DNA of 35,126 nt, from the NCBI GenBank assembly GCA_964430915.1, contig CAYSHT010000005.1, forward strand, positions 1-35,126, read 5' to 3'. Positions 3,875 through 34,116 of this stretch are shown here, in pieces. Position numbers and translations under genes: made by a program. The notes under the pieces are model-generated. The model did not search any database. It had not been told where the DNA came from and saw only the letters and a list, made by a program, of their open reading frames with translations. Within the stretch, counting starts at the first letter, position 1, and each line of letters begins with the position of its first letter. This stretch comes from an uncultured Syntrophaceae bacterium (lineage in GTDB: Bacteria > Desulfobacterota > Syntrophia > Syntrophales > UBA2210).

Positions 3875-3903
3875 TTGTAAGGCACAACATAATGTGGTAT
3901 AAG
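3875..3903 (+). promoter_or_regulatory. Candidate sigma70-type promoter in the murF-mraY gap (TTGTAA-N17-TATAAG with TGn extended -10)
   Basis: ttgtaa at 3875-3880, 17-nt spacer, tg at 3895-3896, tataag at 3898-3903. A second TATAAT lies at 3934-3939. Sequence pattern only. Confidence 0.3.
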
Positions 3904-3960
3904 TCTGAAAATTTATATCTTCCGAGAGACTCCTATAATATGTAGAAGGAAGGGCTGTGC

Positions 3961-5040
3961 GTGATCTATCACCTTTTATATCCACTTAGCGATACTTTCT
4001 CTTACTTCAACGTATTCAGATACATAACGCTGAGGACGATCTATGCGACGATAACTGCACTTGTAATCTGTTTTATTCTGGGGCCGTGGCTGATAAGGAA
4101 ACTTCAGTTGCTTCATGTCGGTCAGCAGATTCGCGAAGACGGTCCGGGGTCACATCTTTCAAAAGAGGGTACGCCCACAATGGGGGGGCTCCTCATCATA
4201 TTTTCTGTTGTCCTTTCGACTATTCTCTGGGCGAGATTAGACGTTGAATACATCTGGATTGTGCTGACAGTAACCCTGGGGTTCGGTCTTGTCGGTTTCA
4301 TGGATGATTACCGAAAGCTCGCCAACCAGAGCAGTAAGGGCATTTCGGGCACTTCTCGATTGATAGCAGAGGTGGCAATCGCACTCACTATCAGCACAGT
4401 GTTGTATTTGAATCCCGGATTTAGCACGAACGTGACAATCCCCTTCTTCAAAAAGATTCTCCCCGATCTTGGATGGGGGTACATTGTCCTTTCCACCTTT
4501 ATCATTGTCGGTGCGGCCAATGCCGTAAACCTTACAGATGGACTTGACGGACTGGCCATAGGACCCGCCACAATATGCTTCGGGACGTACCTCCTTTTTG
4601 CCTATCTTGCAGGAAATATAAAGATATCGGGATATCTTCAGATACCCTACGTTGCGGGAACAGGTGAACTGACCGTTTTTTGTGGCGCCATGGTAGGCGC
4701 TGGTGTCGGATTCCTCTGGTACAACACATACCCTGCCCAGATCTTTATGGGTGATGTGGGTTCCCTCTCGCTGGGAGGTGCCCTCGGAACAATCGCGGTT
4801 ATGACAAAGCAGGAGATCATACTTGCCATTGTGGGGGGGATATTCATCGTTGAGACGATTTCAGTCATATTTCAGGTGGGCTGGTTCAAGGTGTCCAATG
4901 GAAGGAGGATATTCAGGATGGCGCCCATTCATCACCACCTCGAGCTTAAGGGGTGGGCAGAGCCAAAGGTAATTGTAAGGTTCTGGATTATTTCGATAAT
5001 ACTTGCTCTTATTGCCATGAGCACATTGAAGCTCAGATAG
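3961..5040 (+). CDS. mraY: Phospho-N-acetylmuramoyl-pentapeptide transferase
   Basis: Motifs [24 protein letters not shown] and APIHHHLE. Polytopic membrane protein of 359 aa. GTG start with AGGAAGG upstream. Confidence 0.92.
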
Positions 5041-13123: not shown

Positions 13124-14284
13124 ATGTTCGAATTAGTACAAGGTGGTAAGGGTACGGGTGCAAAGATAAAGGTTATCGGTGTCGGTGGCGGAGGAGGAAA
13201 CGCCGTGAACATGATGATATCGTATAACTTGAGTGGAGTGGATTTCGTTGCTGCGAATACGGATTCGCAGGCCCTGACGGTATCCAAGGCACCGATAAAA
13301 ATACAATTGGGGACCGAGGTAACAAAGGGCCTTGGTGCAGGATCGGATCCCGATGTGGGCAAGAGGGCAGCCATTGAGTCTCAGGACAGAATCAGTGATG
13401 TCCTGGATGGGGCCGATATGGTCTTCATTACGGCCGGTCTTGGAGGTGGAACGGGTACGGGTGGAGCTCCCGTTATGGCCGAGATCGCAAAGGATTTGGG
13501 GGCCCTTACGGTTGCCGTTGTTACAAAACCTTTTCAGTTCGAGGGAAAAAGGAGAGAGAAACAGGCCGAAGAGGGGCTGATCGAGCTTAAGAAGATGGTT
13601 GACAGCCTCATAGTGATACCGAACCAGAGGCTTTTGAGTATCAGTGGCAGAAACATGTCCCTTTCCGATGCATTCAAAAAGGCCGACGATATCCTCTATC
13701 ACGGTGTAAAGGGGATCTCGGATCTCATAATGGTTCCCGGTCTCATTAATCTCGATTTTGCCGATGTCAAGAATATAATGTCAGAGATGGGGTTGGCACT
13801 CATGGGTACGGGAATTGCGAGCGGTGAAAGCAGGGCAGTTGAAGCGGCGCAAAAAGCGATATCCTCTCCCCTTCTCGAAGACAACTCGATTCAGGGTGCT
13901 AGAGGTGTCCTTCTCAGCATTACCGGCGGACCCGATATGACCCTCTTTGAGGTCAACGAAGCCTCTTCTCTTGTCCAGGCCGAAGCTCACAATGATGCAA
14001 ATATCATCTTTGGAACCGTTATTGATGAAGATATGGGAGATGAAATGCGCGTCACCGTAATCGCCACCGGTTTCAATGCATCGGACAAGAAAAGAGACAT
14101 AGTGTCCGAGAATATGTCGAGTTTTGCTACCCGCAAAAAGGAAGATATTTCCAAGCCTACCTTTATGAGAAGGAAAGAGGAGGCTAATTCTGAAAAACCG
14201 GTTGTTATCAGGATGGGTATGATCAATGATGAGGAAAACATTGATTATGAAACACCTGCTTTTTTGAGAAAACAGGCCGATTGA
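13124..14284 (+). CDS. ftsZ: Cell division GTPase FtsZ
   Basis: Tubulin signature [11 protein letters not shown]7-loop NLDFADV, and conserved C-terminal peptide [11 protein letters not shown]. Confidence 0.97.
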
Positions 14285-14421
14285 TGGAGTAGAAATGATA
14301 AAAAGAAAAAATTGGTCCGACTTTTCGGTTCCTTAGATTGCGTCTCTCGGAAACAGTATGTAGTTTCTTGTAATTATGTTATCGGCTTTTTAATAGATAC
14401 TCTTTTCATTAGATTCTTATC

Positions 14422-14540
14422 TTGAATTGAGAAGCGATTGCATTCCCCGCTTTCTGCGACGGGGTTAGCGAGCGAATAAAAAACAAACACTTTCCTTAAC
14501 AATCGGAGATTCCCTGCAGCTTGTTGCAGGGAGTTTCAAT
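14422..14540 (+). repeat. Structured intergenic repeat, copy 2 (full length, 119 nt)
   Basis: Same layout as copy 1. Hairpin 2 is ccctgcagc-tt-gttgcaggg (14512-14531). Confidence 0.8.
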
Positions 14541-14649
14541 ATCTAAGTATATATTCACATAGGCAATGTTTCAAAAAATACTATGTTATCGCGAGAAAAT
14601 ACTATAGTATTCTTCTGTAAGTTGTATATTCCGCTTTGTTTCTAAAGGA

Positions 14650-14800
14650 TTGAACTGAGAAGTGAGCATTTTCCGCTACGTGCGGTGGTGTTAGCGAGCG
14701 AATAAAAAATACATTATTCCTCAATCCCGATAAAAGGGGATAATTTCTAAAGTACTAAACAGTCGGAGATTCCCCGTAACAAGTTGCGGGGAGATTCGAT
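14650..14800 (+). repeat. Structured intergenic repeat, copy 3 (diverged, with an internal insertion of roughly 35 nt)
   Basis: ttgaactgagaag..ccgc-tacgt-gcgg..ttagcgagcgaataaaaaat. An extra segment contains atccc-N8-gggat. Then agtcggagattc plus hairpin ccccgtaac-aa-gttgcgggg (14772-14791) and gagattcgat. Confidence 0.7.
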
Positions 14801-14834
14801 TTTCAACTATTCATTATAAGCCAGGGGGTACACT

Positions 14835-16070
14835 ATGGCAATCAATGATCTGTTTTTGTGTCCTCAGGAGTGGGTTGACGATGGTGCGAAAGATTTTGTC
14901 TCTCTTGTCAGGAAGTGGGCAGACAGAGAGATCATATCGAAACGCCACGAGTACCGGCTGAACTACGAGGATCTTTTTATTGAAAAGAGGCTGAAACTGA
15001 TCGGAGACATAGGCCTTGAAAGGCTCGTTCTGCCCGAAAGTTACGGAGGTTACGGATGGAACGAACCGGCCGGGGCATCGGGCATTACGGCAGTTCTGAG
15101 TGAAGTAGGAAGGGCCGATGCCGCGATCGGATTCGCCCTTGCCATCAAATTTGCCCTTTTCTCCGTGATTGCCATGAAACCCAGTATAAGCGATGTCCTC
15201 TGTGATACCTTGGTGCCGCTCAGCTTTACCGAAGGCATTAATGACGTGACGCTGATCCTGCCGGGGGCTGGTGTTGCGGATAGCGAGACGCCACTTTTTT
15301 TCGGCAGATCAGTTATATCCCGTATAGAAAAGACAGATGGGGGATATAGTATAACCGGAGATAAACTGAGACCGGTGGGGTGTGGCAGGAACGCCAGTCT
15401 CTACTGTGTCGTCTGCTCAACTGGGGAGGGGGAAATTGTTCTTGCCTTTGTCCCGAGTGAGACGGAGGGCGTCGTAAGGGGCGATGCTATAAAGGATACA
15501 GGACTTAATGCATGTAAAAATGCGGATATTACCTTTGATAATGCAATAATACCAGCCGAGAACGTGATCTGTCGGGAGGGATCGGTATTGGAACTGTATT
15601 CATGGCTCAATCTTTTCCTCAGTGCTGTGACCCTCGGTGCGGCATTCAATTTTTTCGAGATAGTGCATGAATGGGCCGAAACCAGGGTTATAAAAGGTGG
15701 CGTAGTAATGAAAGAAAACCCCCTCTGTGCGTACGTTCTGGCCGATGTGGCGGGGGAGATAGCCACGGCAAAGCTGTTGTGTTACAGCCTGGCCCAGAGT
15801 TTTGCCGGAAGCGAGCAATATGGCGGAATCGGCGGGCAGGCGATTTATACCTACGCGCAGATGACAGGAGAACGTGTTCATCGGGGTGTTGTGAAGGCAA
15901 TTAACAGGGGCATGGAGCTTATGGGCTCGGCAGGTTACTCAAAGGAATGGCATGTGGAAAAACACTGGCGGGATGTCAAAACGATACAGTCTCATCTTAG
16001 TGGTATCGGTGCGGATGTGCCGGTTAAAATGGATATTGCCCGTTATTTTTATCAGTGCAAAGAACTTTAA
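14835..16070 (+). CDS. Acyl-CoA dehydrogenase-fold protein, subunit A (degenerate FAD and catalytic motifs)
   Basis: 411 aa with ACAD-like N-terminal helices and the C-terminal pattern EKHWRDVKTIQSHLSG in place of RDARxxxIYEGT. ILPGAGVADSE occupies the place of the TEPxxGSD motif. RBS AGGGGG at 14823-14828. Confidence 0.7.
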   Translation: MAINDLFLCPQEWVDDGAKDFVSLVRKWADREIISKRHEYRLNYEDLFIEKRLKLIGDIGLERLVLPESYGGYGWNEPAGASGITAVLSEVGRADAAIGFALAIKFALFSVIAMKPSISDVLCDTLVPLSFTEGINDVTLILPGAGVADSETPLFFGRSVISRIEKTDGGYSITGDKLRPVGCGRNASLYCVVCSTGEGEIVLAFVPSETEGVVRGDAIKDTGLNACKNADITFDNAIIPAENVICREGSVLELYSWLNLFLSAVTLGAAFNFFEIVHEWAETRVIKGGVVMKENPLCAYVLADVAGEIATAKLLCYSLAQSFAGSEQYGGIGGQAIYTYAQMTGERVHRGVVKAINRGMELMGSAGYSKEWHVEKHWRDVKTIQSHLSGIGADVPVKMDIARYFYQCKEL

Positions 16071-16085
16071 AGAGGAGTGCATGCA

Positions 16086-17360
16086 ATGGACCATTTTGAC
16101 GAGTTTTCGAGACCCAAAGAATACATATCACCCTTGGACAAGACCCTTCGCGCGGTGATCAGAAATTGGGCCGAAGAAGAGGTCATGCCAGTACGAAGGA
16201 AATTTGACGAAGACTGGAAGGACCATAAGCTCATAGGCCCCGCCTTTGATAAACTCATGGGCGAATTGGGCCTCCAAAAGGCGATGTTTCCAGAAGAATT
16301 TGGTGGATGGGGACTCACACGATCTGATTCCCTCTTCAGGATTGCCTATGCTCTCTGCGAGGAGATGGGGAGGGCTGATACGGGAATGGCGGTTGCCTGT
16401 GGCGTTACTTTCTGGCCGCTTCTCACCATACTGGTTGAACCCTATGTGAACATGAGACTCGCTGAGGAATTGGCACCCCTCTTCTGTAATACGAAAGAAG
16501 CGGTATTTGTGGCAAATGCCATGACCGAACCTCAGGGAGGGTCCGATATAGAAAATCTGGGATTTTTAAAGGGAAAAACAATAAAGACGACTGCCCGACT
16601 CGATGGTGATGAATGGGTAATCAATGGTCACAAAATCTGGCCATCGAACAGTGGTGGTGTCGCGAAACTCTTTGGTGTTCCCTGTACCACACAACCGGGC
16701 TCAGGTGACCCCGATGACTTTGCATTCATCTTTGTGCCGGCCGATAGTAAGGGGGTAACGCAGGGCGGCCCTTATGAAAAGGCGGGAATGTCAGGAGACA
16801 AGAACGGCGATGTGTGGTTTGAGGATGTAAGGGTACCGAAATGGTACAGGGCACATGGACCAGGCCTGGATGCGAAGGCTTTCTATCAGCTTATATCATT
16901 TGGTCAGGTGGCAAGCGTTGGTTTCTTAACAGGTGCGATGCTGAATCTCTATGAAAAGTTGTACGAATTTGTCTCTTCACGAACCTATCGCAACAGGCTT
17001 CTCAAAGAAGACGATGCTATTGCGGCTGTTATTGGTCGTATCGCCGGCGATATAGATATCTGCAGGATACTCGGTCACGAGGCCGCTATGATGGGAGACC
17101 GGAGAAATAAACCCTATGGCGAACCGATCACTTCGGAAGCGGTTGTGGGAAAGATTCGAAATATCAAGGACTTTGTTTCAGACAGGGCAGTGGAAAACTT
17201 TGGCAAGGCCATGGATGTTATGGGTGTCTATGGTACGGACAGGAATTGGGATATAGAGAAGCACTGGAGGGACGTTAAGATCATACAGCTCTGGATGGGA
17301 GGCAAGCAGCTCTGCCAGATGGAGTCGGCACGGTATTTTTTTAACTGTACAACATTGTAA
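16086..17360 (+). CDS. Acyl-CoA dehydrogenase-fold protein, subunit B (FAD motif retained, catalytic Glu not evident)
   Basis: AMTEPQGGSDIENL, WVINGHKIWPSNSG, and C-terminal EKHWRDVKIIQLWMGG. ORF is open from GTG 16077, but AGAGGAG (16071-16077) fits ATG 16086. Lies 15 nt after subunit A. Confidence 0.75.
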   Translation: MDHFDEFSRPKEYISPLDKTLRAVIRNWAEEEVMPVRRKFDEDWKDHKLIGPAFDKLMGELGLQKAMFPEEFGGWGLTRSDSLFRIAYALCEEMGRADTGMAVACGVTFWPLLTILVEPYVNMRLAEELAPLFCNTKEAVFVANAMTEPQGGSDIENLGFLKGKTIKTTARLDGDEWVINGHKIWPSNSGGVAKLFGVPCTTQPGSGDPDDFAFIFVPADSKGVTQGGPYEKAGMSGDKNGDVWFEDVRVPKWYRAHGPGLDAKAFYQLISFGQVASVGFLTGAMLNLYEKLYEFVSSRTYRNRLLKEDDAIAAVIGRIAGDIDICRILGHEAAMMGDRRNKPYGEPITSEAVVGKIRNIKDFVSDRAVENFGKAMDVMGVYGTDRNWDIEKHWRDVKIIQLWMGGKQLCQMESARYFFNCTTL

Positions 17361-17372
17361 AGGGGACTGGAT

Positions 17373-17786
17373 ATGTCTGATGATCACAATAGAGGGATTA
17401 TCGACGCAACAAACAGGATTGTAAAAGTGCTGCTTAAAAGGCCGGCATTCAAGGAGAACGTGAGGTCTATACTAAACGGTGTCGATCCCGATAATGCGAG
17501 GGAACTTGCCAGGACAATACTATGGGAGGATCCCGAAATTGTTTTGTCCCTGATGGGGGCTCTTCCTTCTCTTGCGAATTCGATGATTCGGTTTCTGGAT
17601 GAGATTATACTGCAGGTGAGGGAAAAATTTCCCCCTGAACTTCTTCATGCATTCCTGGAGGAAATCATGAAGGAATTTGATGGAGAGGCGATTAGAAGTA
17701 TAAGGGACAATATCTCTACCATGGCACAAGAGGGGTATTTTCATTATGACCCCGTAAGCGGGAAGAAGGGAGAGGGGGATGATTGA
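17373..17786 (+). CDS. Uncharacterised protein, paralogue 1 (137 aa; ILWEDP...KFPPxLL module)
   Basis: ORF lies 12 nt after the ACAD-like B gene, with RBS AGGGGA. Shares an approximately 90-aa module with the next ORF. No family recognised. Confidence 0.65.
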   Translation: MSDDHNRGIIDATNRIVKVLLKRPAFKENVRSILNGVDPDNARELARTILWEDPEIVLSLMGALPSLANSMIRFLDEIILQVREKFPPELLHAFLEEIMKEFDGEAIRSIRDNISTMAQEGYFHYDPVSGKKGEGDD

Positions 17787-18444
17787 GACAATGAAAGTGT
17801 CTGACGCGAGAGACGGGGAAGGAAGTGTGCTTGCTGAGATTATTCGAACCCCGCTCTTTAAGGACATGCTGAACAATTATCTCAGCGAGATAGACCCCCG
17901 AAGGGGCGCTGCCACGGCAAAAGTGATACTATGGGAGGATCCACAGCTTATATTATCAATTCTGACCTCGATTCCCCTCATAGTTAACTGGATAATCGTG
18001 TTTCTTGGTGAGTTGGGAAATCAGACATCGGACAAGTTTCCCCCGCAGCTTCTAAAAGGTTTTATGGCAAATATGTGGGAGGATATCGATAAGGATGCGA
18101 TGGAAGAGTGCCTGAAGAATTACGGCAGGCTCATAAAGGGATTGCTCGATGAATCACCAGAATTCCAAAGGGCTCTTCTGGAGGCGATTAAGGGTCCCGT
18201 CGCGATCGGAACAGGAAAGGGTATTAATTCTGCAGTGAGATACATAAATGACATTAACAGGCAGGATCCCATGTTTTTGAAAAAGGTGTTCTCGGGTGTT
18301 ACATCCACGATTGAAGGAAAGGAATTTACCGAGGCATCCACGAGCCTGATTAATGCTGCTCTCGATCAAAAACCCCCGCTCGTTTCATGGGTATGGCACC
18401 TGCTGAAGATGAGAATAAAAGGAAAGTTCGGAAGGCAACCCTGA
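17779..18444 (+). CDS. Uncharacterised protein, paralogue 2 (221 aa; same module plus an approximately 110-aa C-terminal extension)
   Basis: 8-nt overlap with the preceding ORF. Aligns by eye: FK..L..(I/V)DP....A..ILWEDP...LS....P...N..I.FL.E...Q...KFPP.LL..F. The C-terminus ends in the basic HLLKMRIKGKFGRQP. Confidence 0.65.
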   Translation: MIETMKVSDARDGEGSVLAEIIRTPLFKDMLNNYLSEIDPRRGAATAKVILWEDPQLILSILTSIPLIVNWIIVFLGELGNQTSDKFPPQLLKGFMANMWEDIDKDAMEECLKNYGRLIKGLLDESPEFQRALLEAIKGPVAIGTGKGINSAVRYINDINRQDPMFLKKVFSGVTSTIEGKEFTEASTSLINAALDQKPPLVSWVWHLLKMRIKGKFGRQP

Positions 18445-18473: not shown

Positions 18474-20597
18474 ATGAGGGAAAAGGAGAGTAATACAAAG
18501 CCGGATAGCAAAGTAAAAAACAATGCAGATGATTCTTTTGACTACAAACGAATTATGATTGTGTCAGATGTAGTAGAGGAACTGAGGATTAAACAAAGCG
18601 TTATCGAATCATCAATTAATGGACTGGCAATCGGCGACCTTGATGGAAATCTGACCTATGTTAACAACGCCGCACTTGAACTATTTGGCGGGTATGAATT
18701 ATTGGAGGTCCTGGGACGTTCCGCTGTCATTTTTGCCTGTTCAGAGGATGAGGCCCTTGGTGCCCTCAGTCAGGTGCGCGAGAAGGGAACGTGGGTTGGA
18801 GATATAACAGGCAAAAAGAAGGATGGTTCTGAAATCTTCGTTAGTTTATCGGCGAATATCGTTAACAATGAAGAGGGAGAGCCTATTTTTATAATGTGTT
18901 CCTTTGTAGACATTACGGAGCGAAAGCAGATCGAGGATGAACTTCACATCAAAGAAAACGCCATTGCTTCGTCAATCAATGGCATCGGTATTGCCGATCT
19001 GGAGGGGAGGATCACCTATATCAACGATGCGGCACTGACAATGTGGGGTGCCGAAGATCCTTCTGAGGTTCTGGGAAAATCTCCCCTTGATTTTGCCGAG
19101 GACCAGGAGGAGGCGGAACGTATATTTGTAGAGTTCATCGAGAAGGGTGGCTGGACCGGCGAGGTATCGGGGAAGAGAAAGGACGGTTCACCGATCACGG
19201 TTCTTATCACGGCGAGCCTGGTGAAAAACGAGAAGGGTGAGCCGATCTGCATGATGGATTCCTTTGTTGATATTACGGCACGTAAGAAAATGGAAGAGGA
19301 ACTCCGCATCAAAGACAGTGCGATACGATCATCAATCAACGGTATTGCCATTGGAGATCTGGAGGGGAGGATCACCTATATCAACGATGCGGCACTGACA
19401 ATGTGGGGTGCCGAAGATCCTTCTGAGGTTCTGGGAAAATCTCCCCTTGATTTTGCCGAGGACCAGGAGGAGGCGGAACGTATATTTGTAGAGTTCATCG
19501 AGAAGGGTGGCTGGACCGGCGAGGTATCGGGGAAGAGAAAGGACGGTTCACCGATCACGGTTCTTATCACGGCGAGCCTGGTGAAAAACGAGAAGGGTGA
19601 GCCGATCTGCATGATGGATTCCTTTGTTGATATTACGGCACGTAAGAAAATGGAAGAGGAACTCCGCATCAAAGACAGTGCGATACGATCATCAATCAAC
19701 GGTATTGCCATTGGAGATCTTGAGGGGAATATTACCTATGTAAATGAGGCCTTCATAGAGTTGTGGGGCGGTGAAGATATATCTGAGATACTGGGAAAAT
19801 CGGCTGTAACATTTGCCGAGTCTGAAGAAGAAGGACATGATATTATAACTGTTTTGATGAAAGAAGGAAACTGGATCGGAGAAATAACGGGAATCAGAAA
19901 AGATGGCATACCCATAACGGTTCAACTCTCGGCAAGTATGGTTTCGAATGAAAAGGGCGAACCGATTTGCATGATGTGTTCCTTTGTCGACATTACAAAA
20001 CGGAAGGAAGCGGAGGATAAGCTACAGAGGTCACACGAAGAACTGGAGATCAAGGTTCAGGAGCGAACGCAGGAACTTACAGAGGCTAATATACAATTGA
20101 AGAAAGAGATTGATGAGCGCAAAGAGGCGGAAAAGGCTCTATTGCTGAAGGAGAAAGAGCTCGAACTCAAATCCCTTAATCTCGAGGAGGCAAACACGGC
20201 ATTGAAGGTCTTGCTGAGACAGGGGGAAAAGGATAAGATAGAGCTCGAAAATAAGGTACTTACGAACATAAAAGAGCTTGTCATGCCAGGTATCGAGAAA
20301 CTGAGGAGTTGCAGACTCGACGAAAAGCAGAAGGCCTATGTAAACATACTAGAATCAAATCTCGACGACATAATTTCTCCCTTCCTTCAGAAACTCTCGT
20401 CGAAGTATATGGATTTTACTCCTACCGAGATACAGGTCGCCAACCTCGTGAGAGAAGGAAAACCGACCAAAGAAATATCGGAATTATTGAATATCTCTGA
20501 AAGGGGCATAGAATTTCACAGGAACAACATTAGAATGAAGCTGGGTTTGAAAAACAGAAAGACAAACCTCAGGACCTACCTTTTGTCCCTAACCTGA
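18474..20597 (+). CDS. One-component transcriptional regulator: four PAS domains, a coiled-coil-like linker and a LuxR/FixJ-type HTH
   Basis: Four approximately 120-aa repeats, each starting S(S)INGxxIxDLxGxxTYxNxA and ending FVDIT(E/A/K)RK. A Glu/Lys-rich helical stretch follows. C-terminal TEIQVANLVREGKPTKEISELLNISERGIEFHRNNIRMKLG. Confidence 0.8.
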   Translation: MREKESNTKPDSKVKNNADDSFDYKRIMIVSDVVEELRIKQSVIESSINGLAIGDLDGNLTYVNNAALELFGGYELLEVLGRSAVIFACSEDEALGALSQVREKGTWVGDITGKKKDGSEIFVSLSANIVNNEEGEPIFIMCSFVDITERKQIEDELHIKENAIASSINGIGIADLEGRITYINDAALTMWGAEDPSEVLGKSPLDFAEDQEEAERIFVEFIEKGGWTGEVSGKRKDGSPITVLITASLVKNEKGEPICMMDSFVDITARKKMEEELRIKDSAIRSSINGIAIGDLEGRITYINDAALTMWGAEDPSEVLGKSPLDFAEDQEEAERIFVEFIEKGGWTGEVSGKRKDGSPITVLITASLVKNEKGEPICMMDSFVDITARKKMEEELRIKDSAIRSSINGIAIGDLEGNITYVNEAFIELWGGEDISEILGKSAVTFAESEEEGHDIITVLMKEGNWIGEITGIRKDGIPITVQLSASMVSNEKGEPICMMCSFVDITKRKEAEDKLQRSHEELEIKVQERTQELTEANIQLKKEIDERKEAEKALLLKEKELELKSLNLEEANTALKVLLRQGEKDKIELENKVLTNIKELVMPGIEKLRSCRLDEKQKAYVNILESNLDDIISPFLQKLSSKYMDFTPTEIQVANLVREGKPTKEISELLNISERGIEFHRNNIRMKLGLKNRKTNLRTYLLSLT
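18996..19720 (+). repeat. Perfect 360-bp in-frame tandem duplication (one whole PAS domain) inside the regulator gene
   Basis: 18996-19360 is identical base for base to 19356-19720 when the printed lines are compared. Period 360 nt, equal to 120 codons. Confidence 0.95.
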
Positions 20598-20961: not shown

Positions 20962-22113
20962 ATGTCGCTACTGGAAAACTATTACACTCAGGAACACTCA
21001 ATATTCAGGGAATCGATTCGGCGGTTTTTCGACAAAGAGGTAACGCCCTATGTTGAAGAATGGGAGAAAGCAGGAATCGTTCCACGCGAGATCTGGAAAA
21101 AATTCGGAGCGCAGGGTTTTCTATGTCCCTGGCTGCCTGAGGAATACGGTGGAGTGGAAGCGGACTTTATTTATTCTCTCATCGGCATTGAGGAAGCTGC
21201 AAGCACCCATTGTGCGGGATTCGTTTTTCCCCTTCACTCGGATATCATTGTTCCCTATATTTACGCTTACGGAAACGACGAACAGAAGAAACGCTGGCTT
21301 CCCGGCTGTGCGACAGGTGAATACATAACGGCCGTCGCCATGACGGAGCCTGGAACCGGGTCGGACCTGGCGGCCATTCGTGCAACCGCGGTCAAAGACG
21401 GTAATAATTATATAATCAACGGTCAGAAGACCTTTATATCGAACGGTATCAACGGCAACCTCGTGATCGTTGCCGCTCAGACCGAGTCTGAGGCAGACTC
21501 TCCCTATGCGAGGATGTCACTCTTTGTGGTCGAAGGAGATACACCCGGATTCGAAAGGGGACGGAATCTTGAAAAGATCGGGCTCCACTCTCAGGATACT
21601 GCGGAAATGTCCTTCGTTGATTGCGTTGTTCCGGCAGAGAATCTCCTTGGTCAGGAAGGAAAAGGGTTTTACTATCTTATGGAAGAACTCCAGCAGGAAA
21701 GACTTGTCTCAGCAATGATGAGTCAGATCTTTGCTGAGGAGGCCCTGCGTCTGACCATAGAATATACCAAGAGCCGCGAGGCCTTCGGCCGTCCCATTAG
21801 CCGTTTCCAGTATATCTCATTCGAACTCGCCAAGATGGCTACGGATGTTGAACTGGGACGAACATTTATGGAAAGCCTCATTATAGATCACATGGCGGGT
21901 AAGGAACTCGTAAAAAAGGCATCCATGGCGAAATACTGGATTGCTGAAATGTTAAACCAGGTGGTAGGAAAGTGCGTTCAGTTTCATGGAGGTTACGGAT
22001 ACATGGAGGAATATCCTATCGCACGTCTCTTCAGGGATGCGAGGGTACAGACAATATATGCGGGAACTTCCGAGATCATGCTCCTGATTATCAGCCGATA
22101 TCTCGGACTTTAG
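20962..22113 (+). CDS. Acyl-CoA dehydrogenase, LCAD/IVD-type catalytic-base arrangement
   Basis: 383 aa with AMTEPGTGSDLA, KTFISNG, GKGFYYLMEELQQERL and RDARVQTIYAGTSEIM. Strong RBS AAGGAGGA at 20949-20956. Confidence 0.9.
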   Translation: MSLLENYYTQEHSIFRESIRRFFDKEVTPYVEEWEKAGIVPREIWKKFGAQGFLCPWLPEEYGGVEADFIYSLIGIEEAASTHCAGFVFPLHSDIIVPYIYAYGNDEQKKRWLPGCATGEYITAVAMTEPGTGSDLAAIRATAVKDGNNYIINGQKTFISNGINGNLVIVAAQTESEADSPYARMSLFVVEGDTPGFERGRNLEKIGLHSQDTAEMSFVDCVVPAENLLGQEGKGFYYLMEELQQERLVSAMMSQIFAEEALRLTIEYTKSREAFGRPISRFQYISFELAKMATDVELGRTFMESLIIDHMAGKELVKKASMAKYWIAEMLNQVVGKCVQFHGGYGYMEEYPIARLFRDARVQTIYAGTSEIMLLIISRYLGL

Positions 22114-22572: not shown

Positions 22573-23313
22573 ATGAAAAAGGTGTCGCTGTTTATCCCCT
22601 GTACCGTTGATATTATCCTTCCCGAGATAGGAGAAGAGACCACGTATTTGCTCGAACGTCTCGGGGTTTCGCCCATTTACCATGAGAAACAGACATGCTG
22701 CGGCCAGCCTGCAATTAACGCAGGTTATGTTGACGAGGCAAAAAAGTCGGCGAAACACTTTATCGAGGTCTTTGGAGACGATGAGGTCGTGGTCAGTCCT
22801 TCAGGGTCCTGCCTTCATACGGCGAAATACAGGTATCCGGAGCTTCTCTCGGACGAGCCGGTGTGGCTGCGGCGGGCAGAGGAGCTGTCATCCCGGCTCT
22901 TTGAGCTGTCCCAGTATATTGTCGATGTGCTGGGAGTTGAGGACGTGGGTGCCTCATTTGAGGGCACGGTCACCTACCACGAATCCTGCCAAATTCTGAG
23001 AGGCCTGGGGGTTTCCGAACAACCAAAGAAACTCATAACTGCCGTAAATGGAGCGGAATTTGTTCCTCTCAACAGTGCTGACAAATGCTGTGGTTTCGGG
23101 GGAGAATTCGCGAATAACTACCCCGATATTTCGGAGGAGATGGTGAAAGACAAGGTGCAAAACTATATAGCGAGCGGTGCAGATCTGCTCGTCCTCTGCG
23201 AGCCGGGGTGTCTTCTCAATATTAATGGGTACCTGAGCCGCAATCATCCAGAAAAAAAGGCCCTTCATATCGCAACGCTTCTTGCAGATACGGGAAGGGA
23301 GGTGCGGCTATGA
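22573..23313 (+). CDS. lutA: Lactate utilisation protein A (cysteine-rich CCG-domain Fe-S oxidoreductase, LutA/YkgE-like)
   Basis: Two CCG motifs (QTCCGQP, DKCCGFGG). 246 aa. RBS AAGGAGGG. ATGA overlap with the next gene. lutA-lutB-lutC order. Confidence 0.8.
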   Translation: MKKVSLFIPCTVDIILPEIGEETTYLLERLGVSPIYHEKQTCCGQPAINAGYVDEAKKSAKHFIEVFGDDEVVVSPSGSCLHTAKYRYPELLSDEPVWLRRAEELSSRLFELSQYIVDVLGVEDVGASFEGTVTYHESCQILRGLGVSEQPKKLITAVNGAEFVPLNSADKCCGFGGEFANNYPDISEEMVKDKVQNYIASGADLLVLCEPGCLLNINGYLSRNHPEKKALHIATLLADTGREVRL

Positions 23314-24746
23314 AGATAAAAACGGAACAGTTTGTCGAGGTAGCACGAAGGGAAATGGCGGATCTGAATTCACGAGCATTTCTGCAACTACTCCCCCCTG
23401 TCATAGCGGCGATGCGAAAAGCCGCAATGGCAACCTTTCCCGATCCGGATGCGGCCACTGAATATTCGAGGGCCATCAGGGCTGAGGTGGTTGCGCGATT
23501 GCCGGAACTTCTTGAAGAATTCGAGGCAAATGCAATTGCACGCGGTGTCAAGGTGATCTGGGCGCGGGATGCGGAGGAGGCAAACGATTTTATTCTCAAT
23601 CTTGCCCTGAAGCGAGGGATCAAATATGTCACGAAGGGTAAATCCATGGTCAGTGAGGAACTGGGAACCAACGATGTACTCATCAAAAACGGCATAGAGG
23701 CATTTGAAACGGACCTCGGTGAGTTTATCGCCCAGCAGCTCAATCGCCCTCCCTTTCATATCGTAGGTCCGGCCGTCAATGTTTCAGTCCAGGAGATATG
23801 CGATCTCTTTATGGAAAAGGCGGGCATGGAGGAAGCCACCACGGATCCTGTTGAACTTGGGTATGCGGCGCGTGTTTATCTGAGAGATAAGTTTCATCAT
23901 CTCGAGATGGGTATTACGGGCGTCAATATGGCCGTGGCCGAGACGGGTTCAATTATAAATGTTGAAAATGAGGGAAATATACGCCTGACCAAATCATCTC
24001 CCAGGGTCCAGGTATCCGTCATGAGCCTTGAAAAGGTCGTTCCCACCATGCGAGATGCAATACATGTACTCAGGCTCTTGTGCAGAAACTGCACCGGGCA
24101 GTCAATTTCCTCATATGTGTCTATAGATACGGGTCCGAAAAAAGACGATGAGATTGACGGACCGGAAGAACTCTATATCGTCATTGTTGATAACGGGCGC
24201 TCCGATCTTTACGGGGACGTAAAGGCCCGTGAGGCCCTCAGATGCATACGCTGCGGAGCATGTCTAAATCACTGCCCTGTTTACGCGACGATCGGCGGTT
24301 ATCCTTACGGCTGGGCCTATTCCGGTCCGATGGGTCAGGTGTTAAATCCCCTCCTTCTCGGTCTGGACAGAACGCAAGACCTTTATCGAGCCTGTACGTT
24401 ATGCGGAGCGTGCAAAGAGGTGTGTCCCTCAGGCATAGACCATCCAAGCATGTTCCTCTACTACCGCTCAAAGGACGTGAAGGGTGATAGTAAATTGAAA
24501 GGGAAAAAACGCGACTGGAAGGAAGTTGGCATTTTCAAGATATTCACCCTTGCATCCACACTACCATGGCTTTGGAATCTGGGTGCAAGGCTGATACGTC
24601 CCTTCTATAATCGAAATGCCAAAAATGGTGTGGTCTCTCATATATCGGGGCTCTTTGAAGGCTGGTTCAGAAAAAGGGACCTCCCGGCCATGCCTGCAAA
24701 GACATTCCACGAGCGCTGGAAGGATATAGAAAAGAGGTTATCTTAA
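23310..24746 (+). CDS. lutB: Lactate utilisation protein B (4Fe-4S / LUD-domain protein, LutB/YkgF-like)
   Basis: 478 aa. Two ferredoxin-type motifs, CIRCGACLNHCP and CTLCGACKEVCP, following a LUD-like N-terminal domain. Confidence 0.8.
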   Translation: MKIKTEQFVEVARREMADLNSRAFLQLLPPVIAAMRKAAMATFPDPDAATEYSRAIRAEVVARLPELLEEFEANAIARGVKVIWARDAEEANDFILNLALKRGIKYVTKGKSMVSEELGTNDVLIKNGIEAFETDLGEFIAQQLNRPPFHIVGPAVNVSVQEICDLFMEKAGMEEATTDPVELGYAARVYLRDKFHHLEMGITGVNMAVAETGSIINVENEGNIRLTKSSPRVQVSVMSLEKVVPTMRDAIHVLRLLCRNCTGQSISSYVSIDTGPKKDDEIDGPEELYIVIVDNGRSDLYGDVKAREALRCIRCGACLNHCPVYATIGGYPYGWAYSGPMGQVLNPLLLGLDRTQDLYRACTLCGACKEVCPSGIDHPSMFLYYRSKDVKGDSKLKGKKRDWKEVGIFKIFTLASTLPWLWNLGARLIRPFYNRNAKNGVVSHISGLFEGWFRKRDLPAMPAKTFHERWKDIEKRLS

Positions 24747-24773
24747 TAACGAATCGGGGGAGAGGAGAATAAA

Positions 24774-25445
24774 ATGGTACGGAACGCAAGAGACGAAATC
24801 CTCGGTAAACTCAGGGCTGTTCACAGGGCTGATGTCCCTCAGCGACCCGAGGTGCCGTCATTGAATGAAACGGCCTTCGACAGAGAGGAAATGATAGCCA
24901 AATTTACAGAGGCACTCTTCCTGCAGACAGGTGTTGTACACAGGGTCAAGGACAATCAGGAAGCCCTGGATAAGCTTGCGGAGATCGCAAAAGAGGAAAA
25001 ACTGGAAAAGGTTATGGCCTCGACGGATGACGTAATTGCACCGCTGGATTTACCTTCATGGGGGAAGGAAAACGGAATTCAGATTCTTACGGCCGGGGAT
25101 TTCAAGGACAGAAATTCCTTTAAAGATGCGGTCTTTGATGAGGTAAATGCGGGCATTACGGGAGCGAATTTTGCCGTGGCGGAATCGGGCACGCTTGGAC
25201 TCATCCATGACAGGGATCAGGCAAGGCTGATCTCTCTTGCACCCATACTCCATATTGCCATTGTGCCGACGGAGAGATTTGTTCCCATATATGAAAGTGC
25301 AATCGAGAAGGTTTTTGAAGATATAAATGCTGTTCCCGGCCAGTTCACTTTTATTACGGGGCCGAGCATGACGGCCGATATTCAGGCTACCATCTTCAGA
25401 GGGATGCACGGACCGAGGAAGCTGATCGTCATCCTGACAGGTTGA
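24774..25445 (+). CDS. lutC: Lactate utilisation protein C (LUD-domain, LutC/YkgG-like)
   Basis: 223 aa, third gene of the lutABC arrangement. RBS GAGGAG. Call rests on size, position and general LUD-domain resemblance. Confidence 0.7.
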   Translation: MVRNARDEILGKLRAVHRADVPQRPEVPSLNETAFDREEMIAKFTEALFLQTGVVHRVKDNQEALDKLAEIAKEEKLEKVMASTDDVIAPLDLPSWGKENGIQILTAGDFKDRNSFKDAVFDEVNAGITGANFAVAESGTLGLIHDRDQARLISLAPILHIAIVPTERFVPIYESAIEKVFEDINAVPGQFTFITGPSMTADIQATIFRGMHGPRKLIVILTG

Positions 25446-25489
25446 TTTTTTCAGATATGGAATCATATCGAATAAGTGGAGGGCATTGA

Positions 25490-25765
25490 ATGAAGCCGAA
25501 TGTGGTTATTATAAATCTTCGGGATAATGTTGCCGTGATACTTGAGGATGTAAAAGAGGGAGACATCATTAATCTTCCCAACGGTAAAATGTTTACCGCC
25601 CGTTCCGATATTCCTTACAGTCATAAGGTTGCATTGAAAGACATAGAAGCTGGAGGGTACATTTATAAGTACGGTGAGGTAATCGGAGCGGTAAAGGAAA
25701 ACATAAGAAAAGGCGACTGGATTCATACCCACAATCTGGATATCGAGGCGAAGGTTGAGGAATGA
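25490..25765 (+). CDS. UxaA-family small subunit (SAF-domain; SuyA / altronate-dehydratase N-terminal-like)
   Basis: 91 aa. Pattern VAVILEDVKEGD...SHKVALKDIEAGGYIYKYGEVIG is typical of the SAF domain that forms the N-terminus of UxaA/GarD. ATGA overlap with the large subunit. Confidence 0.7.
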   Translation: MKPNVVIINLRDNVAVILEDVKEGDIINLPNGKMFTARSDIPYSHKVALKDIEAGGYIYKYGEVIGAVKENIRKGDWIHTHNLDIEAKVEE

Positions 25766-26928
25766 GAAAAATGGAGACATTCGACGGATATGAGAGACCT
25801 GACGGGTCAGTGGGGATAAGGAATTATGTAGCGGTTATTCCCACCGTGGCATGTGCCAACGGGATTGTTGGTATGATTGCGAGGGCCGTCCCCGGTGTTG
25901 TCCCCATTTATCATGGTCACGGTTGCGGCAGAGCCGTTGAGATAGAGATGCATACAAGGACATTGGCGGGGCTGGGAAAGAATCCCAATGTTGCCGCTGT
26001 CCTTGTGATCGGTCTTGGATGCGAAACAATAAACGCCGAAGGGCTTGCACTGGCTATTTCAGTGACAGGAAAACCGGTGGAATTTCTGTCCATTCAGGAT
26101 AAAGGAGGCTCAAGAAAAACGGCGGCGCTGGGTATGGAAATAGTCAGAAAAATGATTGATGATGCAAAAAGGATCGAGAGAAAACCCTTTGGATTTGACC
26201 GGTTTTGTGTGGGTCTTGAATGCGGCGGCTCCGATGCCTTTTCGGGCGTTACTGCCAATCCCGGGGTTGGTCTCGCGGCCGACTGGATTGTTGACGCCGG
26301 CGGTACGGTAATCCTCACGGAAACGACAGAGATGATAGGGACATCGCACATACTTGAGAAAAGGGCCGAATCTCCTGAAATTGCGGCCGAGATTCATCGT
26401 GTCATTGCGGAGGCGGAAAAGCGTGCCGACGATATCCTCGGCCCTCTCGCGTCTCTTGTCATTTCACCGGGTAATATGGATGGTGGCATGAGTTCCATTC
26501 GCGAAAAGTCGCTGGGCTGCATCATTAAAGGAGGGAGCAGACTGATTAACGAAGTAATAGACTACGGAACTACCCCTGCAAAAAAGGGGCTCGTTATCAT
26601 GGACGGACCGGGCTATGACATGGAATCCCTGGCGGGTCTCGGAGCGACGGGAGCACAGCTCATACTATTTACCACCGGGAGGGGCAATCCTGCCGGTTTC
26701 CCGCTGATACCCGTAATCAAGGTGGCAAGTACGAGAAGACTCTATCGCGCTATGGAAGATGATATGGATATCAATGCGGGGGTTGTCCTCGAAGGTGAAA
26801 GCCTGGAGGATGTTTCTCAGGAGATAATCAGTCTTGCGAAAGAGGTCGCAAACGGGAGGCAAACGAAGGCGGAGATTAATGATCAGGATGGTATCGTTTG
26901 CCTCTATACGATGAATCCGGCCTTTTAA
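25762..26928 (+). CDS. UxaA-family large subunit (SuyB / altronate- or galactarate-dehydratase C-terminal-like)
   Basis: 388 aa. GIRNYVAVIPTVACAN, HGHGCG, VIGLGCE and GLECGGSDAFSG patterns match the GD_AH_C domain as I remember it. Confidence 0.72.
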   Translation: MRKMETFDGYERPDGSVGIRNYVAVIPTVACANGIVGMIARAVPGVVPIYHGHGCGRAVEIEMHTRTLAGLGKNPNVAAVLVIGLGCETINAEGLALAISVTGKPVEFLSIQDKGGSRKTAALGMEIVRKMIDDAKRIERKPFGFDRFCVGLECGGSDAFSGVTANPGVGLAADWIVDAGGTVILTETTEMIGTSHILEKRAESPEIAAEIHRVIAEAEKRADDILGPLASLVISPGNMDGGMSSIREKSLGCIIKGGSRLINEVIDYGTTPAKKGLVIMDGPGYDMESLAGLGATGAQLILFTTGRGNPAGFPLIPVIKVASTRRLYRAMEDDMDINAGVVLEGESLEDVSQEIISLAKEVANGRQTKAEINDQDGIVCLYTMNPAF

Positions 26929-26947
26929 GAGAAAAAGGGGGTATAAG

Positions 26948-28192
26948 ATGAAAAGGGTGTCTGTGCCATCGCGGCTCTGGTATGAAAACATAGAAAGGGA
27001 ATTGAACTTCCCCGACAGGTGGGAGGTGGATAATCTTACCTCCCCCGGTTTTGAAAAGCCGGCGCTTGCCTCCGAGGAGATAAAAGAAAAGATTAGAAAT
27101 CCCATTGAGGGTCCGACGCTTGAGGAACTCGCGAAGGGTAAGAGTCAGGCCGTCATTGTATTTGACGACATGACAAGACCGACGCCTGTTAAGGATATTG
27201 CCCCACATGTGCTCGAGTCTCTCCACAAAGCCGGGATGAAGAAAGATCAGATACGGTTTATCTGGGCGCTGGGGAGTCACGGTCCCTATGACATGATAAA
27301 TGCCAGGAAGAAATTGGGCGACGAGATAGTCGAAAATTACGCCGTCTACAACCATGATGCCTTTCAGAATACGGTGTGGGCGGGAAGAACGCCGACAGGA
27401 GTGGAACTCTGGTTCAACCGGGAATTTATGAACTGCGACCTGAAAATAGGTATCGGGTGCATCACGGCCCATGTTCATGTGGGCTTTGGAGGTGGCGCAA
27501 AGCTGATTCTTCCCGGTGTGGCAGGGATCGAGACGGTAAACCAGTTTCATAATCAGATGTTCAGAGATCCCGTACGAACAGGACTGGGAAAGTTTGATGA
27601 TAATATTATGCGAGCCGAGTGCGATGCCGCCGGTGATATGGTCGGTCTTGATTTCAAGGTGGATTGTCTTTTGAACCGCCGTGGTGAGATAACCGGTCTC
27701 TATGCGGGATCATTCAGGGCCACTCATGCCGCCGGGGCCGAGGAAGGTAAGGATCACTATGGGATTCCCCATGCTTCAGGCTATGATGTAGCGGTATGCA
27801 ATTCCTACGGAAAGGCGAATGAATCGGCGATTGCACTCTTGCTTTCCCTCACTGTTTTAAAACCTGGCGCAGAGGGAACGGCCGTACTTATTTCCGATGC
27901 TCCCGAGGGGCAGGTGCCTCATTATGTCATGCGGGCCTGGGGGACCGGCTATGGCGGCCGCCACTATAGTCCGCGGGATCCGGGATTTGTCTCCCTGCTC
28001 ATGAAGAAACTGATTGTCTTAAATCCCCAGCCCGACCGGACAATGCTTGACCTTGTCTGTCACATTGATGATGCCACGGTTGTGAAGACCTGGAATGAGG
28101 TGCTGAACGTACTGGAAAAGGATTATACCGGGGCGGCAAAGGTTGCCGTGATTCAGGACGGGACCATGCAGTATATAAAAACGCCGGAATGA
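26948..28192 (+). CDS. larA: LarA-family nickel-pincer-nucleotide-dependent 2-hydroxyacid racemase/epimerase homologue
   Basis: 414 aa. FDDMTRPTP (compare LarA DxTRP), ALGSHGP (His108-like), AHVHVGFGGGAKLILPG (His174/Lys184-like) and NQFHN (His200-like). Confidence 0.72.
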   Translation: MKRVSVPSRLWYENIERELNFPDRWEVDNLTSPGFEKPALASEEIKEKIRNPIEGPTLEELAKGKSQAVIVFDDMTRPTPVKDIAPHVLESLHKAGMKKDQIRFIWALGSHGPYDMINARKKLGDEIVENYAVYNHDAFQNTVWAGRTPTGVELWFNREFMNCDLKIGIGCITAHVHVGFGGGAKLILPGVAGIETVNQFHNQMFRDPVRTGLGKFDDNIMRAECDAAGDMVGLDFKVDCLLNRRGEITGLYAGSFRATHAAGAEEGKDHYGIPHASGYDVAVCNSYGKANESAIALLLSLTVLKPGAEGTAVLISDAPEGQVPHYVMRAWGTGYGGRHYSPRDPGFVSLLMKKLIVLNPQPDRTMLDLVCHIDDATVVKTWNEVLNVLEKDYTGAAKVAVIQDGTMQYIKTPE

Positions 28193-32273: not shown

Positions 32274-33311
32274 TTAAAAGTTGTGTATCGCAGTTGATTT
32301 AAAGGAAAGGCATATCTCTGACCCTTCGTTGATTTCCATCTCGAAGAGTGAGCTTTTCGTAATAAGCGATTTGAAGAGGACCTTCTCGACGATAATATCA
32401 ACCTCATAATAGAGCCCATGATCCACTATGGCGGTAACCCTTCCACTGAAGGAATTTCTCATGCTTGAGGTCAGTTTTTCCCTGCTGAGGACGATGTCTT
32501 CCGGTCGTATCGCAAGGTATCCGTGGCCGTTTTCGGGTGTTCTGCCGAGCTCGATTGCAAGACCGTTTACATTTGCCTTTGTTCCCTGAAAATGGGCCAT
32601 AAAAAGATTTTTCATGCCGACAAAATCGGCAACAAAAGTCGAATCAGGGTGCTGAAATATATCCTTCATGTATCCGACCTGTTCGATTTTTCCTCCGTTC
32701 ATAATAGCGGCCCTGTCTGCGAGGGAAAGGGCTTCGGCAAAATCGTGGGTTACCATGAGGAAGGTAACATCCGTACTCTTGTGAAGTCTTTTTAACCCGA
32801 TTCTTATGTCTTCCCTGAATCCCGGGTCCAAGGCGGAGAGGGGTTCGTCAAGGAGCAGCACCTTCGGGTTAACCATGAGTGCTCGTGCCAGGGCTATACG
32901 CTGATTTTCGCCGCCGCTCAGGTTAGTAGGAAGCCGTTTCAACAGATGCGAAATATTCAGCTCTTCCACGAGTCGATCCCGTCGTTTTTTTGACTCATTC
33001 TTTGGTAACTTGTGAAAATGAAGACCATAGGTGATATTTTCGAGTACCGTCAGATGGGGAAAGAGGGCATAATCCTGATAGACAATACTGATCCCTCGTT
33101 TCTCCGGCGGTAATTTCGTGACGTTTCTTCCAGCTATTGTCATACGTCCGCTATGAACCCCAATGAGTCCGGCCATTGCTTCAAGGAGAACAGTTTTACC
33201 CGCGCCCGTTGGCCCCATCAGTATGAAAAACTCGTTCTTTTCAATTCTGAGGTTGATATCGCGGAGTTTAAACTCGCCCAGATTAATATTGACGTCTTCA
33301 ATATGGATCAT
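32274..33311 (-). CDS. wtpC: Tungstate/molybdate ABC transporter ATP-binding protein with a C-terminal TOBE/Mop-like domain
   Basis: Walker A GPTGAGKT, signature LSGGENQRIALARAL, Walker B LLLDEPLSALD. The C-terminal approximately 60 aa form a beta-rich TOBE-like tail. ATGA overlap with the permease gene. Confidence 0.7.
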   Translation of the reverse strand: MIHIEDVNINLGEFKLRDINLRIEKNEFFILMGPTGAGKTVLLEAMAGLIGVHSGRMTIAGRNVTKLPPEKRGISIVYQDYALFPHLTVLENITYGLHFHKLPKNESKKRRDRLVEELNISHLLKRLPTNLSGGENQRIALARALMVNPKVLLLDEPLSALDPGFREDIRIGLKRLHKSTDVTFLMVTHDFAEALSLADRAAIMNGGKIEQVGYMKDIFQHPDSTFVADFVGMKNLFMAHFQGTKANVNGLAIELGRTPENGHGYLAIRPEDIVLSREKLTSSMRNSFSGRVTAIVDHGLYYEVDIIVEKVLFKSLITKSSLFEMEINEGSEICLSFKSTAIHNF

Positions 33312-34102: not shown

Positions 34103-34116
34103 TCTTTATAAATCTA

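Follow-up and report, generated by a model that had tools for sequence, protein, structure and literature searches.

In textbooks, the family of acyl-CoA dehydrogenases (ACADs) is characterised by two features, a glutamate base and flavin adenine dinucleotide (FAD). What, then, is the function of two adjacent ACAD-fold genes when neither product has that base? The question is raised by a 35,126-nucleotide stretch of DNA from an uncultured Syntrophaceae bacterium (GenBank assembly GCA_964430915.1, contig CAYSHT010000005.1, positions 1 to 35,126 of the forward strand; hereafter, the window), in which two tandem genes encode the proteins that we call subunit A and subunit B:

14835-16070, plus strand: subunit A, 411 aa; degenerate ACAD-fold paralogue, predicted to be the partner that does not bind the flavin ring
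16086-17360, plus strand: subunit B, 424 aa; conserved, predicted to be the FAD-binding catalytic subunit

The answer that we favour, and to which as a whole we give an even chance, is that A and B form a one-FAD heteromer that lacks the base and that is coupled to a family of small proteins (P proteins) and to an ATP-dependent reductase.

The initial annotation of the locus, made by eye, had placed the MCAD-type YEGT position at HLSG in A and at WMGG in B and had seen no carboxylate at either of the two canonical base positions. We aligned single sequences and family profiles of A and B with solved ACADs of the PDB using HMMER, and the two alignments agree. The MCAD Glu376 position corresponds to Leu388 in window A (QSH-L-SG) and to Met407 in window B (QLW-M-GG), exactly as placed by eye; the MCAD Thr255 position, which is the position of the helix-G glutamate of IVD and LCAD, corresponds to Gly276 in B, and A has a deletion of 3 residues there. 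The register was checked by counting along the 4p13 chain, which reproduces MCAD E99, T136, W166, T168, and E376, and along the 7p98 chain, which reproduces Ch1DH T363. The ACAD base is known at three different places, the third being exemplified by Ch1DH, an ACAD of strict anaerobes in which both canonical positions are non-acidic (N241 and T363) and in which the base is Asp91, on a broken helix of the N-domain (PMC9293079). The Ch1DH Asp91 position corresponds to Trp113 in B and to Ala107 in A, and thus, as aligned, the third position is likewise without a carboxylate in both subunits.

A residue census of 70 non-redundant B sequences and 56 A sequences from related loci extends these assignments to the family. 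At the Glu376 position, B has Met in 61 sequences, Leu in 8, and Glu in 1, and A has Leu in 53 of 56; at the helix-G position, B has Gly in 70 of 70 and A has the 3-residue deletion; and at the Ch1DH Asp91 position, B has Trp in 70 of 70 and A has Ala, Thr, or Ser. The canonical glutamate, whether of the E376 or of the helix-G type, is thus present in neither A nor B, and the claim of the initial annotation stands on both profile alignments and census. The single Glu at the Glu376 position of B belongs to L066_10 (locus L066, positions 14119-15381; metagenome-assembled genome (MAG) Deltaproteobacteria bacterium AUK176; L numbers denote loci of our census), the third ACAD gene of its locus and a paralogue within the B clade, which shares 65% of its residues with the B of that locus and 57% with window B and which reads QLYEGGKQL where B reads QLWMGGKQL. 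Because L066_10 keeps Tyr-Glu-Gly, it confirms the alignment register and identifies loss of the glutamate as a derived trait of the B clade; the contrast between W-M and Y-E also provides a direct mutational handle.

The surroundings of the lost base are remodelled as well. In B, the residues corresponding to MCAD Tyr375 and Thr378 are the invariant Trp406 and Gly409, the latter followed by Lys410, the equivalent of R256 is lost, and L103 is replaced by W113. Trp113 and Trp406, both invariant in B, lie where residues of MCAD line its acyl pocket, a pattern that points to a reshaped, possibly flat, pocket in B. With the base lost at all three known positions, textbook glutamate-initiated alpha,beta-dehydrogenation would be impossible for A-B.

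The residues that hold the flavin are distributed between the two subunits in a complementary manner. The isoalloxazine contacts of B, Thr150, Trp188, and Thr/Ser190 (MCAD T136, W166, and T168), are invariant in the 70 sequences, and their counterparts in A are replaced by Ile/Val, an invariant Arg179, and Leu/Phe, respectively. Conversely, A has invariant Arg284, Gly288, and Glu361 at the positions of MCAD Arg281, Gly285, and Gln349, residues that we take to reach across the dimer to the FAD of the partner; the equivalents of these three residues in B vary, that of Arg281 being Arg in only 43 of 70 sequences. This complementary conservation of FAD residues indicates that A and B form an obligate dimer, with a predicted content of one FAD per pair and with the ring in B. 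The pattern supports two earlier proposals, namely that B keeps the FAD motifs and A is degenerate, and that the pair is probably an alpha/beta heteromer with one FAD site.

Both subunits have the three-domain ACAD fold (N-terminal alpha, middle beta, C-terminal alpha). A and B each match the three ACAD Pfam domains PF02771, PF02770, and PF00441, weakly in each case (1e-15 to 1e-4 for A; 1e-17 to 1e-10 for B), and the middle-domain score of A is under the gathering cut-off. The best PDB matches of A are generic ACADs, at about 1e-17 to 1e-19. An AlphaFold2 (AF2) model of B (pLDDT 83; pTM 0.87) compared by use of Foldseek with MCAD, SCAD, IBD, and Ch1DH gives query-normalised TM-scores of 0.74-0.79 at 18-26% identity; target-normalised scores against ACADs reach 0.88, and none of these structures stands out as especially close. 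The nearest relative of each subunit is the other (HHalign E 1e-60; 27% identity), and the two are colinear over their whole length. Common to both are an insertion of 8 residues behind the GSD loop and the motifs KEN[PD], EKHWRD, and C-terminal ARYF.C. Median identity to the window protein is 73% for B and 48% for A.

The nearest architectural parallel is provided by the heteromeric steroid ACADs, which are encoded by two adjacent paralogous genes and have one FAD per pair, with the catalytic glutamate kept in one subunit (PMC8399759). Like the alpha2beta2 enzymes ChsE1-ChsE2, ChsE4-ChsE5, IpdE1-IpdE2, and Scd1AB, A and B are adjacent ACAD paralogues of which one keeps the flavin-ring site, and their FAD, at one per pair, is predicted to lie at the heterodimer interface. 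Unlike those enzymes, A-B has the catalytic glutamate in neither subunit and bears them no specific sequence relationship; moreover, the steroid enzymes serve aerobic steroid catabolism in actinobacteria and proteobacteria, whereas the hosts of A-B are strict anaerobes, in which P proteins and a Bzd-like reductase accompany it. No ChsE, FadE26-29, or IpdE chain is present among the PDB matches, and no NCBIfam model of IpdE or ChsE matches A or B; the PimC and PimD models give 40 and 21 bits against cut-offs of more than 600. Membership in the ChsE/FadE/IpdE and PimCD groups was rejected on these grounds, in agreement with the earlier expectation that the pair lies outside the characterised heteromeric ACAD families. 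More broadly, no NCBIfam equivalog comes near its cut-off with A or B, the best giving 104 bits against 650.

Two ACADs provide precedents for the absence of the glutamate. The first is Ch1DH, which acts by 1,4-elimination on the product of benzoyl-CoA reductase (BCR) (PMC9293079) and which the initial annotation had missed as a glutamate-less precedent in anaerobes. By sequence as well as by fold, Ch1DH ranks with the top PDB matches of the two subunits, and, like Ch1DH, A and B are non-acidic at both canonical positions. Unlike A-B, however, Ch1DH is the product of a single gene; identity is about 22-23%, and Asp91 is replaced by the invariant Trp113 in B and by Ala, Thr, or Ser in A. Absence of the Asp91 base in both subunits led us to reject membership in the Ch1DH type. 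The second is 3-sulfinopropionyl-CoA desulfinase (AcdDPN7), a member of the ACAD family without the catalytic glutamate (PMC9293079). A-B shares with it the ACAD fold and the missing glutamate; the desulfinase, however, is one protein described by one model, and the A/B gene pair has an unrelated genomic context. Membership was rejected, as model NF042439 gives 38 bits with A and 57 bits with B against a cut-off of 600 bits. Group D flavin monooxygenases (DszC, SfnB, HsaA) were likewise rejected, at E values of 1e-4 to 1e-7 and 20-30 bits against cut-offs of 430-850. Full-text literature searches and targeted look-ups of papers retrieved no description of the A-B pair or its cluster, and A-B is probably an undescribed type of flavoenzyme, that is, a heteromeric ACAD without any known base. 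As part of the overall explanation, we assign A-B to a distinct, strongly constrained ACAD subfamily that has no Glu or Asp base at the three known positions.

The pair is widespread. Relatives of B in the protein collection number more than 2,400, all with generic names, and B is encoded in at least 265 GTDB species representatives, all of them MAGs, from Desulfomonilia, Smithella/Syntrophales, Desulfobacterales, Bacillota (including Syntrophomonadaceae), Actinomycetota (Geothermincolia), and Spirochaetota. We judge these hosts to be strict anaerobes from their taxonomy and from the genes that neighbour the pair. Between Thermodesulfobacteriota, Bacillota, Actinomycetota, and Spirochaetota, B sequences share 60-63% identity, which implies strong constraint, and on this sequence evidence B has probably spread horizontally. 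Retention of the pair and of its residues across at least 265 species of several phyla is far beyond chance.

The initial annotation had raised the possibility that the order A-B-P1-P2 recurs in other genomes, and a synteny census by tblastn over 87 loci shows that it does: A is the gene immediately 5' of B in 79 of 79 loci, and a P-family gene is downstream of B in 72 of 74, the exceptions being only L066 and its relative L065. The census also identifies the usual genomic partner of the pair, a Bzd-type ATP-dependent reductase module, which the initial annotation had missed. Among the 50 loci with at least 9 kb downstream, the neighbours were as follows:

HGD-D beta-like subunit: 43 loci
divergent HGD-D alpha-like subunit: 43 loci
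BcrAD-type ATPases: 42 loci
CdhC-like, that is, acetyl-CoA synthase-like (ACS-like), protein: 40 loci
MinD/CooC-like ATPase: 33 loci

A typical cluster runs TetR, A, B, P, P, (TetR), a longer P, HGD-D beta, HGD-D alpha, two different ATPases, ACS-like, and CooC-like, with an EFR1 flavodoxin-ferredoxin sometimes at the end, and the full arrangement is found in three phyla.

The module is most similar to the Bzd/Mbd class I benzoyl-CoA reductases (BzdNOPQ, MbdNOPQ), with which it shares a BzdN/MbdN-like subunit, a second HGD-D subunit, and two BzdQ-like ATPases. The HGD-D beta-like subunit is closest to BzdN (8s02, 5e-39) and then to MbdN (9g87, 9e-36), ahead of HadC, and the two ATPases, which are distinct from each other, match BzdQ at 1e-58 to 1e-60. 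Unlike in Bzd/Mbd, the second catalytic subunit is extremely divergent (the best PDB match of the HGD-D alpha-like subunit, to a double-cubane protein, has E 7e-6), the usual genes for dienoyl-CoA hydratase, dehydrogenase, and hydrolase are missing beside the module, and ACS-like and CooC-like proteins are encoded alongside. The ACS-like protein (about 40 loci; L048 17759-19256 with the next gene) has 244 aa, resembles the middle domain of acetyl-CoA synthase, and has a conserved C-terminal CxxCx5C; its gene is followed by that of a MinD/CooC-like ATPase with the motif E-G-C-x-C, the metal-binding motif of Ni-insertion ATPases. The two form an unexpected metallocentre-maturation pair beside a BCR-like enzyme.

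START-domain (PF01852) proteins, which are uncommon in bacteria, are encoded near the cluster in three loci of two lineages (L004 16325-16963; L045 and L046, about 6 kb upstream of A, the latter at 3898-4584), and L004 also adjoins genes for a URO-D-like methyltransferase, a B12-binding protein, and TRAP DctP. These neighbours may hint at a hydrophobic or methylated substrate.

The most constant neighbours of the pair are the P proteins, which in the window are encoded by two genes:

17373-17786, plus strand: P1, small protein, all-helical, from an orphan family to which its paralogue P2 also belongs; starts 12 nt past B
17779-18444, plus strand: P2, P-family protein whose central helix is hydrophobic and whose C-terminus is basic and amphipathic; shares 8 nt with the end of P1

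As paralogues, P1 and P2 share 32% identity (BLASTP E 1e-22). An exhaustive HMM search recovered the P family as only 421 cluster representatives among 1.84 billion; members have 1-5 repeats of a unit of about 120 aa and comprise single domains, P1-P2 fusions, and proteins of 3-5 repeats. P1 and P2 have no match in Pfam, NCBIfam, or PDB sequences, and the long members have no Pfam domain. An AF2 model of P2 built from 20 sequences is all-helical and poor (pLDDT 51). Derivation of P from an ACAD or VLCAD-like helical domain was rejected, the profile-profile comparison of P with B giving a probability of 0.1%. Membrane anchoring inferred from hydropathy was dropped as well: the P2 helix reaches 2.37 (19-residue Kyte-Doolittle), but soluble A and B score as high, and the P-family median, 1.64, is below the soluble B controls. 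The near-obligate linkage to A-B suggests that P proteins are extra subunits or dedicated partners of the pair.

Taken together, these results lead to a model in which A-B would be an obligate heteromeric ACAD-fold flavoprotein, alpha-beta or alpha2-beta2, in which B would carry the single FAD and the substrate pocket, and in which A, the degenerate paralogue, would complete the FAD site of B across the dimer. A-B would work with dedicated helical P1/P2 and, in most genomes, also with the co-encoded Bzd-type ATP-dependent, benzoyl-CoA-reductase-like Fe-S enzyme. Its most likely role would be flavin-mediated transfer of hydride or electrons, in which a thioester that the reductase makes or consumes, probably a cyclic or conjugated intermediate, serves as acceptor or donor, with protonation or deprotonation at a remote carbon or through another base. 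Ch1DH sets the precedent that anaerobes have re-engineered ACADs for reductase-derived cyclic dienoyl-CoA, and B lacks even the aspartate of Ch1DH. In its heteromer stoichiometry, its FAD content, its functional link with the reductase, and its kind of chemistry, the model goes beyond what was observed, namely fold, paralogy, empty base positions, FAD-residue pattern, and synteny. Tentatively, and with somewhat less than even confidence, we extend the model to the proposal that A-B-P is the flavoprotein arm of an unrecognised multi-component anaerobic system, comprising P proteins, a Bzd-like reductase, an ACS-like protein, and a CooC-like maturase, for a reductive or radical transformation that uses non-glutamate flavin chemistry.

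Several observations weigh against this model. The sampled loci come mostly from related Desulfomonilia and Smithella lineages, and the counts are thus not independent. In the window lineage and its relatives (76-95% identity), the order is ftsZ, A-B-P1-P2, PAS regulator, ACAD, and lutABC, with no reductase nearby, and L063, L071, L074, and L077 also have A-B-P without a reductase within 10 kb. The neighbours of these stand-alone loci are housekeeping genes (dcw/ftsZ, pst, pfk), and the existence of such loci implies that the pair can function, or at least be encoded, independently of the reductase. Genes for CoA ligase, transferase, hydratase, and thiolase are not regular members of the cluster, with an AMP-binding ligase near 4 loci only; since no CoA-activating or beta-oxidation genes are regularly present, the CoA-thioester substrate is an assumption. 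Genes for electron-transfer flavoprotein (ETF) are absent from the clusters. Finally, invariant residues of B, namely E159 (in the family-specific insertion), E311/D313, K410, and E416, are candidates for a relocated base, and such a base may reside in B, in A, or in a P protein.

This last point leads to the rival explanation that survives best, although we consider it unlikely: that A-B is an ordinary alpha,beta-acyl-CoA dehydrogenase or enoyl-CoA reductase with its carboxylate at a fourth position, in B, in A across the interface, or in P. An ACAD base has already been found at three places (PMC9293079), and a fourth would be in keeping with the flavin contacts and general pocket architecture that B retains, with its invariant acidic residues (E159, E293, E311, D313, and E416), and with the YEG paralogue L066_10, which shows that the scaffold is compatible with classical catalysis. 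However, the flanks of the old position have been rebuilt too and show no variation (Y375 to W, T378 to G, R256 lost, L103 to W113), which points to an altered pocket more than to the mere exchange of a base; and the lack of ETF genes and the linkage to a low-potential, ATP-driven reductase also argue against it.

Distinctly less probable is a housekeeping enzyme directed at lipids or acyl-ACP, in which A-B, served by P, would modify long-chain acyl or ether lipids and the HGD-D/activase proteins would have a PlsA/Ger-like reductive role. The stand-alone loci are consistent with such an enzyme, being located after ftsA-ftsZ in the window lineage and beside pst or pfk elsewhere, as are the very hydrophobic helix of P2 with its basic amphipathic C-terminus, the START-domain proteins near three loci, and the TetR regulators, which also control lipid synthesis. 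On the other side, only some P proteins have a membrane-like hydropathy, the beta subunit of the reductase has BzdN/MbdN as its closest matches and is accompanied by two separate BzdQ-like ATPases, and the patchy cross-phylum spread at 60% identity resembles that of a transferred accessory trait.

We regard as very unlikely a non-redox ACAD-fold enzyme, for instance a lyase, an isomerase, or a desulfinase, whose FAD would be structural or missing. Non-redox ACAD-fold enzymes are known, ACAD10/11-type eliminases among them. The glutamate-less 3-sulfinopropionyl-CoA desulfinase (PMC9293079) is a further example, and B weakly matches its NCBIfam model; the 57 bits of that match, however, fall well short of the 600-bit cut-off and do not exceed the scores for a dozen other ACAD families, and the invariant N5-contacting Thr and stacking Trp of B argue for a functional flavin ring. 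A catalytically dead scaffold or regulatory pseudo-enzyme pair, to which the missing base in both subunits and the clear degeneracy of A might point, is highly improbable, since B is among the most conserved proteins of the cluster, with a mean column identity of 73% across phyla and invariant motifs in its active-site region, and cofactor-ring contacts rarely stay invariant in pseudo-enzymes.

In the window itself, the pair is embedded among the following further features:

14285-14834, plus strand: upstream intergenic region of the A-B operon (ftsZ to A), with repeats and conserved blocks
18474-20597, plus strand: regulator with four PAS domains and a LuxR-type (GerE) domain (Pfam), 29 nt 3' of P2
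20962-22113: neighbouring, 'ordinary' ACAD (Pfam ACAD 1e-45)

These coordinates agree with the earlier description of A and B as 15 nt apart and as the head of a four-gene unit followed by a PAS/LuxR regulator. The open reading frame of B as called mechanically starts at an in-frame GTG at 16077; the ATG at 16086, 15 nt past the stop of A, is preceded by AGGAG at 8 nt and gives the 424-aa length of the homologues, for which reasons we prefer it as the start.

The PAS/LuxR protein is the probable local regulator in the window lineage; the arrangement recurs in the relatives L087 and L089, and other lineages carry TetR regulators instead. Its gene contains a 360-nt tandem duplication at 18996-19739 (2.1 copies, 98% matches), almost exactly one PAS module doubled, and a third, older copy of the repeat (85%) reaches 19996. 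The orthologue in L089 is larger, with 947 aa and more PAS modules, and the two observations together indicate that tandem duplication changes the number of PAS modules within this lineage.

The region from 14285 to 14834 is the probable promoter/operator region of the operon. It is conserved in L087 and L089, including AAAATACTATGTTAT...AAAATACTATAGTAT, and contains a composite unit twice, each with a 44-nt block (82%), a 61-nt block (74%), and a GC-rich hairpin whose stems differ between units by compensatory changes. A short direct repeat, AAAATACTAT..TAT, occurs twice at 14575-14610 and is kept with its flanks in L087 and L089, and the copy number of the hairpin unit varies. An Rfam scan of the window, this region included, gave no match, and a scan for promoters and terminators gave counts at background level. 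The region may comprise an operator plus a REP-like element or small RNA.

The gene set of the window is that of an anaerobe, as the initial annotation had proposed: the dcw cluster, ftsA, and ftsZ lie 5' of A, and an ACAD, lutABC, and altronate-dehydratase-like, LarA-like, and 2-oxoacid:ferredoxin oxidoreductase genes lie 3' of the regulator. The ACAD at 20962-22113, which had served as the reference for the by-eye alignment, has Ala at the MCAD Glu376 position (IYAGTSEI) and Glu on helix G (QQERL) and is thus of the LCAD/IVD type, a point missed at the time; it adjoins the operon in L089 too. The genes at 22573-28192, lutABC-like, then altronate/galactarate-dehydratase-like, then LarA-like (lactate racemase N-terminal domain), have the same order in L089 and may form a hydroxy-acid utilisation cluster. 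A molybdate/tungstate-type ABC transporter (SBP_bac_11, permease, and TOBE-domain ATPase) is encoded at 32274-35103 on the minus strand, 15 kb from A-B, and the same type of transporter is directly 5' of A-B in a Spirochaete locus (L006 4382-7208); its proximity to the pair is probably coincidental.

Earlier exceptions among ACADs each revealed new chemistry: 1,4-elimination in the case of Ch1DH and non-redox elimination in the case of the desulfinase. The A-B subfamily joins two rare traits, a heteromeric architecture predicted to hold a single FAD and the loss of every known base position, and it is widespread. Strong purifying selection acts on it, and its hosts include syntrophs and sulfate reducers from digesters and sediments. 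By gene linkage, it is associated with an ATP-dependent, BCR-like reductase and with a family of proteins that has no known relatives. Its substrate, once known, would probably reveal an unrecognised anaerobic pathway and would extend the repertoires of both the ACAD family and the class I BCR/HGD family.

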